This document shows positions 55,453 through 58,734 of a stretch of 64,000 nt of DNA, piece by piece. Source of the stretch: an uncultured Acidobacteriota bacterium (GTDB lineage: Bacteria > Acidobacteriota > Vicinamibacteria > Vicinamibacterales > 2-12-FULL-66-21); assembly GCA_963797715.1 (NCBI GenBank), contig CAWCQS010000013.1, forward strand, positions 350,855 through 414,854. Direction: 5' to 3'. The first letter of the stretch is position 1. Each line of letters begins with the position of its first letter. Made by a program: the position numbers and the translations under genes. A model generated the notes under the pieces. It was not told the origin of the DNA. It saw only the letters and a list, made by a program, of their open reading frames with translations, and searched no databases.

Positions 55453-55515
55453 AATTCTGAATTCTGCAGGCTGAGGTGGGAAGCGGAAGGGATGAAGTGG
55501 GAAGTTTGAAGTCTG
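55453..55515. repeat. Nine tandem heptamers (aattctg aattctg caggctg aggtggg aagcgga agggatg aagtggg aagtttg aagtctg)
   Basis: Read directly. It starts 6 nt after the antiporter stop, and TGA occurs in all three frames. Confidence 0.65.
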
Positions 55516-56480: not shown

Positions 56481-57263
56481 TCAGCCGCGCAGCGTCTTGA
56501 CGGTCTCCGTGGCCTTGTCGAGTAAGAAGCCGATATCGCTGTTGCAGCTGAACAGCCGCAGCCCGCGGTCGCTCCACTGCCGGGCGAGCTCCAGGGTGCG
56601 CATGTGGATGCCGGGCGCGATGCCGGCCCGATCGCACCGCTCGCGAATCTTCTCGACGGCGGCGACAAACGTCGGGTGGGAAAAGTCGCCGGCGACGCCA
56701 AGCGAGATCGACAGGTCGCCGGGGCCGATGAGAACCGCGTCGATATTCGGCACGGCGAGGAGATCGTCGATCCGCTCGAGCGCCGTTCTCGTCTCGATTT
56801 GCAGCACGACGAGCACGTTCGCGTTGATGTGCGCGATGGCGTCAGGGATCGAGACGGCTTCGTACTCGAGCTGCGGCGCCGCGAGTCCAAAGCCGCGCGT
56901 CCCCATCGGCGGAAACCGCGTCCAGCTGACGGCCGCCGCCAGCAACTCCGGCGACTCGACACGCGGGAGGAGCACACCCTGGGCGCCGCAGTCGAGCGCG
57001 CGCGCGATGAGTGCGTACTGCAGATCGGCGACTCTGACGATCGGACAGAGTCCGGCGCCGGCCGCAACGCGCATCAGATCCTGCAGCGTCTCAAGACCAA
57101 ACGGCCCGTGCTCGGCATCGAAGAAGACCCAGTCGAGGCCGGCTGCCGCCAGCGCGCGGACGGCGTCGACCGAACGAAGCTGAAAACAGCTGCAGCCAAG
57201 CTGCACCTGACCGTCACGGAGAGCTTGTTTGACGCGATTTTGACGCACGGCGCGATCATACAT
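56481..57263 (-). CDS. HpcH/HpaI family aldolase
   Basis: ..GLDWVFFDAEHGPF.., ..GVLLPRVES.., ..PPMGTRGFG.., ..VVLQIETR.., ..GPGDLS.. Confidence 0.8.
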   Translation of the reverse strand: MYDRAVRQNRVKQALRDGQVQLGCSCFQLRSVDAVRALAAAGLDWVFFDAEHGPFGLETLQDLMRVAAGAGLCPIVRVADLQYALIARALDCGAQGVLLPRVESPELLAAAVSWTRFPPMGTRGFGLAAPQLEYEAVSIPDAIAHINANVLVVLQIETRTALERIDDLLAVPNIDAVLIGPGDLSISLGVAGDFSHPTFVAAVEKIRERCDRAGIAPGIHMRTLELARQWSDRGLRLFSCNSDIGFLLDKATETVKTLRG

Positions 57264-57270
57264 ACAACTT

Positions 57271-57376
57271 CTGAAAGCTGACAGCTGATCAGCTCTCAGC
57301 TCTCAGCTCTCAGCTCTCAGCTCGTCCGAACTGAGAACTCCTAGCTGACAGCTGACAGCTGAGAGCTGAGAGCTGT
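57271..57376. repeat. About 15 consecutive heptamers: (CAGCTCT)5 facing (AGCTGAC)2(AGCTGAG)2, plus a CTGAAAG/CTGACAG/CTGATCA lead-in. Together they form a long imperfect inverted repeat.
   Basis: Read directly. It fills almost the entire 124-nt divergent intergenic region between ATG 57263 (minus strand) and ATG 57388 (plus strand). Confidence 0.85.
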
Positions 57377-57387
57377 AAAATCCCCCC

Positions 57388-58734
57388 ATGAAGCGTAGTG
57401 TGCGATCGGTTTACCTCTGCGTTGGGTTGTCCCTCTTGTGCGTCGCCTCGATCTCGGCCGACTGGACCAACTGGCGCGGGCCGAATGGGAACGGTGTGGC
57501 GCCCGATCGGACCCTGCCGGTTCGATGGAGCGCAACCGAGAACGTCGCGTGGAAGGCACCCATCGCTGGCGCCGGCGTTTCGACGCCAATCGTGAGCGGC
57601 GATCGAGTCTACGTCACATCGCAAATCGGCGCGGGGGTTCGGCGCGAGGGCACTCACCCGCGGCTCGTGCAGGGGTCGGACGCGGCCGCGCAAGGCGAGC
57701 GCGCGCTCTCAATCGACAGCGCGGGGTCCGACCCCGCGCGCACCGTTTTCGTTGTCGAGGCAATCAATCGCGCCACGGGTGCTCGCATCTGGGAGCGGCG
57801 GATCGATGCCGTCGGCGAACTCACGCCCGTGCATGACAAACACAACCTCGCCACGCCCAGCCCTGTCACCGATGGCAATCTCGTCGTCGCATGGTTCGGG
57901 ACCGGCCAGGTCGTCGCGCTCGATCGGTCGGGTGCGGTCGTGTGGCAGCGGCACCTCGCAAAAGAGAACGGGGCGTTCGACATCCAGTGGGGCCACGGCA
58001 CTTCGCCGGTGATCCACGGCGACCTCGTGATCCTGCTGTGCGACCAGCCGGCCCGGTCGTACCTGCTCGCCGTCGACAAGGCCACCGGCAAGGATCGGTG
58101 GAAAACGGACCGTGGTCAGGGACGCGCGTCGTACAGCACACCGCTCGTGGTGGAAGGATCGTTTGGCGCTGAAGTCATCGTGAACTCCACCGAGCGGATC
58201 GACGCCTACGATGTCAAGACGGGCGCGTTTCTCTGGCACACCGGCGAGACGAGCCGCTTTGCCGTGCCGTCGCCGGTGTTCCACGACGGCGTGATCTATG
58301 CCAGCCGCGGCTATCGCAGCGGGCCGTACATGGCGATCAAGCCAGGCGGGCGCGGTGACGTGTCAGCGACGCAAACGGTCTGGAAGATCGCCACCGGTGC
58401 GCCGTACTGCTCATCGCTGCTCTATTACGACGGGATCGTCTACATGGCGAACGACGTCGGCGTGTTGACGGCCGTTGCGGCAGCGACCGGTGACCGCGTG
58501 TGGCAGGAGCGTGTCGACGGCGTCTTCTCGGCATCGCCGGTCGCCGGAGGCGGGCACGTGTACTTCCTCGGCGAGGGCGGGGAGACGGTGGTCCTGAAGG
58601 CTGGTGCGAAGGACCGCCCGCCGGCAATCGTCGCGAGCAACGACCTCGGTGAACGCGCGATCGCGTCGCCGGCCATCTCGAACGGTCAGATCTTCATCCG
58701 CACCGACAAGCACGTCTTCGCCATCGGCCGCTGA
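57388..58734 (+). CDS. PQQ-like beta-propeller repeat protein, secreted
   Basis: Signal peptide, ADWTNWRGPNGNGVA.., and repeated ..G..VYV.. / ..ATG..W.. blades. Confidence 0.75.
   Translation: MKRSVRSVYLCVGLSLLCVASISADWTNWRGPNGNGVAPDRTLPVRWSATENVAWKAPIAGAGVSTPIVSGDRVYVTSQIGAGVRREGTHPRLVQGSDAAAQGERALSIDSAGSDPARTVFVVEAINRATGARIWERRIDAVGELTPVHDKHNLATPSPVTDGNLVVAWFGTGQVVALDRSGAVVWQRHLAKENGAFDIQWGHGTSPVIHGDLVILLCDQPARSYLLAVDKATGKDRWKTDRGQGRASYSTPLVVEGSFGAEVIVNSTERIDAYDVKTGAFLWHTGETSRFAVPSPVFHDGVIYASRGYRSGPYMAIKPGGRGDVSATQTVWKIATGAPYCSSLLYYDGIVYMANDVGVLTAVAAATGDRVWQERVDGVFSASPVAGGGHVYFLGEGGETVVLKAGAKDRPPAIVASNDLGERAIASPAISNGQIFIRTDKHVFAIGR

Follow-up and report, generated by a model that had tools for sequence, protein, structure and literature searches.

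Between two divergently transcribed genes of an uncultured Vicinamibacterales bacterium, encoding an HpcH/HpaI-family aldolase and a PQQ_2 beta-propeller protein, an array of 7-nucleotide (nt) repeats occupies positions 57271-57376 of the 64,000-nt stretch of DNA analyzed here (the window). We consider it likely that this array is a gene-less copy of a family of AGCTNTC heptamer hairpins, that it is a slippage-prone variable-number tandem repeat lying between leaderless promoters, and that it does not serve as an on/off switch. The first-pass annotation had described an array that fills the divergent promoter region and had suggested that changes in unit number might act as a phase-variable switch. 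The description is correct: if the longest open reading frames (ORFs) are used, the array takes up 106 of the 124 nt and its distances to the ATGs are 7 and 11 nt. The switch, in contrast, is not favored by the geometry of the site, with the variable run lying outside both core promoters.

According to the explanation that we prefer, the array, a gene-less member of the AGCTNTC/GANAGCT heptamer-array hairpin family, which is restricted to one Vicinamibacterales genus, would sit in the untranscribed gap between two compact, -10-dominated promoters facing away from each other. Its outermost units would supply the -35-like hexamer of each promoter, with the -10 boxes placed just outside. The perfect five-unit inner arm would grow and shrink, presumably by replication slippage, so that strains come to differ in copy number and at least one allele is hairpin-less. 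Such changes in copy number would leave both core promoters intact, and the variation would most likely be a neutral or mildly modulating by-product of repeat purity rather than an evolved switch.

Array structure and the two promoters

The array consists of about 12 recognizable units and a 19-nt loop. An earlier figure of about 15 units included the loop. The parts of the array (to which no strand is assigned) and the promoter elements next to it are as follows.

57271-57288, left mini-arm: CTGAAAGCTGACAGCTGA, 2.5 units of the GCTGANA type
57289-57323, inner arm: perfect (TCAGCTC)5 (Tandem Repeats Finder, 5.0 copies, 100% match), variable in copy number
57324-57342, hairpin loop: GTCCGAACTGAGAACTCCT, 19 nt, nonrepeated
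57343-57375, right arm: (AGCTGAC)2(AGCTGAG)2AGCTG, complementary to the inner arm
57255-57260, - strand, -10 box TATGAT of the aldolase promoter (promoter scan): 6 nt ahead of the GTG; TAT(G/C)AT invariant in 8 species
57376-57381, + strand, -10 box TAAAAT of the propeller promoter (promoter scan): TA(A/G)(A/G)AT kept in seven species of the same genus
57382-57387, + strand, C-run spacer between -10 box and ATG: 6 nt in the window

Tandem Repeats Finder reported three period-7 arrays in this interval, one of them being the perfect 5.0-copy run, and the palindrome TGATCA is located at the junction between the left mini-arm and the inner arm. A repeat finder delimited arms of 33 nt with 94% complementarity. 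Both strands are predicted to fold into a single long interrupted hairpin, with free energies of -60 kcal/mol (z score, -6.8) for RNA of the + strand, -72.5 kcal/mol (z score, -6.1) for RNA of the - strand, and -35 kcal/mol (z score, -5.8) for DNA; none of the shuffled sequences folded as well in any of the three cases. The 19-nt loop holds no ORF, so the four-helix-bundle gene that accompanies other arrays (see below) is not carried by this one, and no target-site duplication was seen around it.

A consensus scan of positions 57150-57480 returned exactly two promoter-like sites, compared to 0.0 in shuffled sequence: one on the + strand, CTGACA-18-TAAAAT, and one on the - strand, CTGTCA-18-TATGAT. 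The first of these, scoring 10 of 12, has its -35-like hexamer within the right arm (57352-57357, + strand), and the -35-like hexamer of the aldolase promoter is located inside the left mini-arm (57279-57284, - strand). Promoters inside the array or farther away had been expected earlier, and the scan agrees in that the outermost GCTGACA units provide both -35-like hexamers, while the -10 boxes stand immediately outside the array. On the propeller side, TAAAAT (57376-57381) is followed by six C and the ATG at 57388; on the aldolase side, reading along the - strand, TATGAT (57260-57255) is followed by CGCGCC and a GTG at 57248. An extended -10 element (TGn) was considered for the propeller promoter and is not claimed, the TG being one base out of register.

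The genome as a whole (an assembly of 6.72 Mb with 64.7% GC) shows the same arrangement. Counting TANNNT motifs upstream of start codons gave a sharp peak of 125 cases at the position where the last base of the motif precedes the start codon by exactly 6 nt, compared to a background of ∼22; counts were also raised at 7 to 9 nt. A position matrix built from these 125 upstream regions contained a -10 box with a G two bases upstream of it and no conserved -35 hexamer. Together, the peak and the matrix indicate that leaderless, -10-dominated promoters are common in this organism. Both genes flanking the array look leaderless as well, with transcription predicted to start at their start codons. Promoters of this acidobacterial genus can thus be reduced to a -10 box and a start codon, and it is because of this compactness that a repeat can take up nearly a whole divergent gap without destroying them.

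The two genes themselves had been identified correctly in the first pass, as judged from their PF03328 and PQQ_2 domain matches.

56481-57248, - strand, HpcH/HpaI-family aldolase gene: Pfam PF03328, E value of 1.9e-30; conserved GTG start at 57246-57248
57388-58734, + strand, PQQ_2 (BamB-like) beta-propeller gene: Pfam PF13360, E value of 7.5e-27

The start of the aldolase gene had to be moved. Its longest ORF would begin at the ATG at 57263, as had been assumed, but that ATG is not conserved in the 8 species compared, whereas a (G/A)TG CG start, corresponding to the GTG at 57248, is invariant in all 8. The propeller protein begins with a signal-peptide-like segment. Its family numbers ∼40 paralogues in the genome (40 matches), and most large relatives have 28 to 53 matches.

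In the orthologous divergent gap, five species of the same genus (L002, L004, L005, L007, and L021) carry direct AATGCTG arrays without an inverted arm, and two others (L001 and L020) carry no heptamers. The TA(A/G)(A/G)AT box of the propeller promoter is conserved in these seven species regardless of what lies upstream. With the filler of the gap differing among species and the -10 boxes conserved throughout, the filler apparently turns over while the promoters stay.

Copy-number variation among strains

The variable part of the array was delimited by comparison with close relatives. Exact matches to the aldolase and propeller proteins among public assemblies, together with one metagenome pattern scan, yielded seven independent strain contigs with flanks 97.5 to 99.3% identical to the window. 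The run was counted in the orientation of the aldolase gene, where the (TCAGCTC)5 of the window reads as (GAGCTGA)n.

Window: 5 units
L036: about 3 units
L037: 4 units
L040: 3 units
L038: at least 17 units, the contig starting within the run
L039: at least 13 units, the contig starting within the run
L046: contig ending within the run, no unit count
L035: allele without hairpin, CTGAAAGCTGACAGCTGAGAGCTGAGAGCTG-TAAAAT, 74 nt shorter than the window

The run therefore differs in length among close relatives, in the manner of a hypermutable repeat. The first-pass annotation had anticipated such variation, and it is borne out by the unit numbers listed above and by the hairpin-less allele, all within flanks of ∼99% identity. 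As an identical unit number everywhere was not observed, the idea of a mutable site survives, and the locus documents a natural heptamer copy-number polymorphism in an uncultured soil bacterium.

L035 lacks the inner arm together with the loop and a portion of the right arm, and the edges of the missing stretch fall in direct repeats of 11 to 13 nt. L035 and the hairpin-bearing L040 come from the same metagenome. The L035 allele may have arisen by deletion or may be the ancestral state that preceded the inverted arm; the latter is favored, though not settled, by the direct-array-only layout of related species.

Apart from the inner arm, the region is nearly constant. The right arm, loop, -35-like hexamers, spacers, and -10 boxes are identical in every contig that reaches them, including the right arms of L037 and L040, except for L036, whose right arm has a 1-nt deletion. 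The part of the left mini-arm closest to the aldolase gene is the same in 7 of 7 contigs. Variation is thus confined to the inner arm, and the promoter-proximal units are unchanged across all strains. One further difference concerns the C-run before the propeller ATG, which measures 6 nt in the window and in L036 and 7 nt in L035, L037, and L040. The window and L036 appear to be long-read assemblies and the other three short-read ones, and since the difference tracks this division, we treat it as technical: it is probably a homopolymer error of the metagenome-assembled genome (MAG) rather than a biological feature, and the true spacing may be 7 nt.

Variability is not special to this site. A second pure run, (CCCCGAG)n at C8:370403-370455 (L058), has 7 units in the genome, 2 units in six strain contigs, and 6 to 8 in others, and one more distant contig has a different array there. 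It lies directly upstream of the TTGACA -35 hexamer of a gene for a blaI/mecI-like repressor; an M56 peptidase gene comes after the repressor gene. In contrast, a degenerate heptamer array at 55453-55515, 1.8 kb away from the one studied here, did not vary in the three strains compared. Pure runs vary and mixed-unit arrays (further examples are given below) stay constant, so that, on the sequences compared, repeat purity rather than position predicts whether an array is variable. The 5-unit run of the target is among the 8 longest of the 72 perfect heptamer runs in the genome.

The heptamer hairpin family and its PF05635 genes

Heptamer arrays are abundant throughout the genome. We counted ∼790 period-7 loci, and perfect arrays of at least 3 copies numbered 74 for period 7, compared to 25 for period 6 and 2 for period 8. 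Tandem Repeats Finder reported 1062 period-7 arrays, 716 of which are intergenic, although only ∼14% of the DNA is. The heptamers belong to many types, including AATGCTG, AGCCGCG, AGAGCTG/ACAGCTG/AAAGCTG, ACGACTG, AAGTCTG, GGTTCNN, TCGGGGC, and TAGGAGC. Usually, an array is followed within 100 nt by its own reverse complement, giving hairpins of 58 to 230 nt, and 169 loci qualified as hairpins of inverted arrays by folding. These occupy 3.6% of convergent, 2.8% of codirectional, and 1.1% of divergent intergenic regions; in the 101 cases between codirectional genes, the median distance from the upstream stop codon to the hairpin is 2 nt. The genome thus harbors a dispersed, inverted, intergenic heptamer family with an excess of period 7 and a bias toward 3' ends.

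Within this family the target is not exceptional in size or position. It had been presented as the largest array, which is true of the window, but it ranks only 53rd by length among the 169 hairpins of the genome. Similarly, its location away from 3' ends sets it apart from the other arrays of the window, but genome-wide it is one of 13 hairpins between divergent genes (8% of the 158 intergenic ones). By sequence it is of the AGCTNTC/GANAGCT type and a member of an AGCT-core family of 191 loci, which share the layout TAGCTNTC...loop...GANAGCTA; the regular form may also be written TAGCTNTCAGCTNTCAGC - loop - GCTGANAGCTGANAGCTA. AGCTNTC arrays were found in 13 of 13 genomes of the genus; 18 genera elsewhere in the family and order gave 0 to 2 hits, and the reversed control pattern gave ∼0 hits. 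For another member of the genome's pure arrays, (AGCTATC)6 at C12:426351, an exact-protein look-up of the adjacent protein returned no record. Our literature search found no paper on heptamer repeats in Acidobacteria.

A search for inverted arrays spaced farther apart than a hairpin loop yielded two pairs that enclose a small four-helix-bundle-like gene. Searching for the corresponding family, PF05635 (23S rRNA intervening sequence [IVS]-protein/Avd-like type), revealed five loci in the genome, and 5 of 5 lie between inverted heptamer arms, every arm type being different.

C25:2164-2731, PF05635 locus: arms GGTTCNN
C8:250119-250754, PF05635 locus: arms CAGTCGN
C8:130000-130520, PF05635 locus: arms TAGGAGC
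C8:701380-702000, PF05635 locus: arms TCGGGGC
C15:547150-547640, PF05635 locus: arms AGCTNTC/GANAGCT, the type of the target; family match of 84 bits

The last of these has AGCTCTC/AGCTTTC/AGCTGTC on its left and GCTGAAA/GCTGAGA on its right, so the target shares its heptamer type with a gene-bearing cassette of the same genome, as a gene-less derivative should. For comparison, of the 6068 crudely called genes, just 39 are flanked on each side by a period-7 array of any kind at a distance of up to 120 nt. Several PF05635 genes look frameshifted at homopolymers, more likely due to sequencing error in a long-read MAG than to decay. Across the genus, both arms are present at ∼20 of 30 PF05635 loci, which represent ten heptamer types, and protein identity has a median of 84% within an arm type and 36% between types. 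Identity tracking the arm type shows that gene and arms are inherited as a unit, which is not in itself proof that the protein recognizes the arms; any role of the four-helix-bundle protein would be a putative one.

In one relative (G006), which has 192 pattern hits, the most in the genus, a PF05635 gene at G006:C10:2968-3578 (L071) is preceded by an AGCTNTC array of ∼24 units and followed by a short GANAGCT arm. Other candidate partners of the arrays were rejected. The GxxExxY (PF13366) nuclease is represented by four loci (five matches, one gene being split), none of them framed by an abundant heptamer type. At C25:55810-56159, an apparently frameshifted GxxExxY gene is framed by inverted CACGATG-type arrays of period 8, and near the remaining three PF13366 genes there are different palindromes or a 32-nt tandem repeat. 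The two Y1_Tnp (PF01797) genes, which would indicate a REP/REPIN-RAYT system, are framed by other palindromes and not by heptamer arrays.

The AGCTNTC family has also entered the ribosomal-protein cluster from rpsL to rplQ (C15:524837-544952, L047), where nine of its hairpins, of 76 to 88 nt, lie between cistrons together with several shorter arrays of this type. Several of these hairpins fill the space between a TAG stop codon, made up of a T and the AG that opens the array, and the following ATG; with the gap fully spanned, stop and start would be brought together at the base of the stem. The mixed-unit hairpins of this operon kept constant lengths (79-80 and 85 nt) over nine contigs, differing by substitutions only. 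Of the strain contigs, 6 have the hairpin between rplC and rplD, and 3 more diverged ones read TAGGCCATG without it. Comparing the filled site (TAG-hairpin-ATG) with the empty one (TAG-GCC-ATG) showed no target duplication, and none was seen around the target either, for which reason we do not regard the array as a miniature inverted-repeat transposable element.

Alternative explanations and related repeats

We infer the absence of a switch function from the variable part lying outside the core promoters, the constancy of the units that set the spacing, the lack of constraint on the -35 hexamer, and the equal variability of the other pure array. The run at 57289-57323 is upstream of both -35-like hexamers, and the 18-nt spacers are invariant; because the units between -35 and -10 do not change, a gain or loss of units leaves the core promoter spacing unaltered. 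A true contingency locus, in which slippage of (TCAGCTC)n changes transcription of the aldolase, the exported propeller, or both and produces mixed expression states in the population, therefore appears unlikely. Such a locus would agree with the range from 3 to at least 17 units across strain-level contigs, with hairpin and hairpin-less alleles in one metagenome, with the break of 4 of the 7 contigs at the array (as expected of a heterogeneous locus), with the rank of the run among the longest perfect ones of the genome, and with the way the array abuts both -35-like hexamers; a secreted propeller of a ∼40-paralogue family would also be a plausible target of variable expression. However, the variable run is neither between -35 and -10 nor coding, and in leaderless promoters without a conserved -35 hexamer, upstream changes may matter little. 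Moreover, the family has hundreds of arrays at sites without any promoter, five units of 7 nt are short for high-frequency slippage, and the differences may have accumulated slowly in strains that are ∼1% diverged. Several points nevertheless weigh against our preferred explanation of the variation as a by-product of repeat purity. Array length may have a quantitative effect on either promoter, whether through an upstream-element effect on the aldolase promoter or through relief of promoter overlap, and only 5 nt separate the start of the variable run from the aldolase -35-like hexamer downstream of it, which places the run in the zone used by UP elements and activators. In addition, no divergent region of the genome has a longer perfect heptamer run, and selection for mutability could be the reason. 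On the technical side, the alleles of at least 13 and at least 17 units were seen at contig ends only and could be partly assembler artifacts, the ∼1% sequence difference between strains means that unit differences give no rate, and the gene calls were crude (an ORF and third-codon-position GC heuristic covering 86% of the genome), making the context counts approximate.

A function of the hairpin as a structural spacer or insulator under selection, in which the cruciform, or DNA bound by the four-helix-bundle protein, separates promoters that would otherwise overlap and compete for RNA polymerase, is quite improbable. The -35-like hexamers of L035 do share the same bases on opposite strands (CTGACAG/CTGTCAG) and are at least 60 nt apart in the hairpin alleles, the DNA fold is stable (see above), and a PF05635 gene framed by the heptamer type of the target exists in the same genome. 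Against this, related species have short direct AATGCTG arrays or no array at the site, the arms of expanded alleles are very unequal, so pairing is not maintained, and binding of the four-helix-bundle protein to the arrays is purely hypothetical; in addition, the frequency of hairpins in divergent regions is about one-third of that in other regions, suggesting that they are disfavored there rather than recruited. A further proposal, also improbable, is the combined possibility that array length tunes, at the level of the population, two leaderless promoters built partly from the repeat and that the heptamer hairpins of the genus depend on PF05635 proteins. If the former were true, the overlapping hexamers of the hairpin-less allele would make polymerase binding mutually exclusive, and insertion and expansion of the inverted arm would uncouple the promoters by placing 60 to more than 150 nt between them; if the latter were true, the hairpins inside operons, that of the ribosomal proteins included, would bring a stop codon beside the next start at the stem base and would either keep the translation of neighboring cistrons coupled or provide processing sites from which cistrons emerge leaderless. 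If array length did affect the promoters, a repeat would cause expression to vary in an organism that is not a host-associated pathogen, which is rare. We regard a role of the target at the RNA level, as a terminator, mRNA stabilizer, or RNase III processing site, as very unlikely, since both genes point away from it and the predicted transcription starts lie outside the array, so that no known transcript crosses it. Most members of the family are nevertheless in transcribed positions (with the short distance from the stop codon noted above in the codirectional case), at least 11 of them between ribosomal-protein cistrons; stems of ∼30 bp are of a size also known from RNase III substrates, and RNase III excises the 23S rRNA IVS of Coxiella burnetii, which carries heptamer repeats and a PF05635 ORF (PMC4990558). 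An intrinsic terminator was rejected, as the scan gave no terminator-like site within the array and the stem is not followed by a T-run, and so was an Rfam 15 family, the only matches being sub-threshold ones to hairpins of microRNA precursors (25 to 40 bits, compared to gathering scores of 57 to 104). An assembly artifact of the long-read MAG can hardly account for the array. The MAG does contain homopolymer frameshifts and the shorter C-run, of 6 nt compared to 7 nt in the presumed short-read contigs, but the hairpin recurs with the same loop and right arm in independent assemblies from other samples (L036, L037, and L040), some apparently short-read, and differences of whole 7-nt units are atypical of sequencing error.

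Among known systems, phase variation by promoter simple sequence repeats that alter the -35/-10 spacing is familiar from Haemophilus and Neisseria. The target resembles these in having a slippage-prone repeat inside a promoter region, here shared by divergent genes, but differs in that the variable run lies upstream of both -35-like hexamers and has a unit of 7 nt rather than 1 to 5 nt. The family is also reminiscent of REP/REPIN elements, being a set of dispersed intergenic palindromic elements that are depleted from promoters and accompanied by a dedicated gene framed by the same repeats; REPs, however, are single imperfect palindromes, whereas the elements described here are tandem arrays. 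They are a clear further example of the excess of 7-base repeats in bacteria and of the way in which such repeats recurrently accompany genes of the four-helix-bundle family; in this genome, copies without the gene have spread even into the ribosomal-protein operon.

With the heptamers of Xanthomonas and Nostoc and the short tandemly repeated repetitive (STRR) sequences of cyanobacteria, our family has in common a 7-nt unit with conserved and variable positions and its presence at hundreds of loci. The closest match in print is the GGGAATC heptamer of Xanthomonas, which occurs at 186 loci, ∼90% of them intergenic and near the end of the upstream gene (Rehm et al. 2015, PMC4692102). In Xanthomonas campestris pv. 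campestris, 70 of the 186 form convergent inverted pairs able to fold into stem-loops (PMC4692102). Between 7 and 8% of the Xanthomonas repeats lie between divergent genes, close to the 13 of 158 found here, and prominent repeats are not shared by related species (PMC4692102), as also applies to our family. Overall, the figures for the two systems are very similar. In contrast to that system, the host here is an acidobacterium, several unrelated heptamer families coexist in one genome, and copy-number variation among strains is documented, whereas the repeat regions of Xanthomonas are rather conserved (PMC4692102). Also unlike in Xanthomonas, no quadruplex is expected, as the units are not G-rich.

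The 23S rRNA IVS of C. burnetii contains a PF05635 ORF (S23p) and adjacent tandem heptamers present in 2 or 3 copies depending on the strain (Warrier et al. 2016, PMC4990558). It resembles the present system in placing a PF05635 gene within a long stem and in its strain-variable heptamers. The target, however, has no ORF and lies outside rRNA in an untranscribed promoter gap, and the arms here are whole heptamer arrays. A connection between dispersed heptamer arrays and PF05635 genes is not made in PMC4692102, PMC4679880, PMC4990558, or PMC2700814. Finally, the TAACTGA repeats of Beggiatoaceae, cyanobacteria, and Bacteroidetes are intergenic, are located just before start codons, and occur in ribosomal-protein operons as well (MacGregor 2015, PMC4679880). 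TAACTGA is a single heptamer whose sets are nearly all direct (one indirect set among 170), whereas the arrays described here are inverted and form hairpins.

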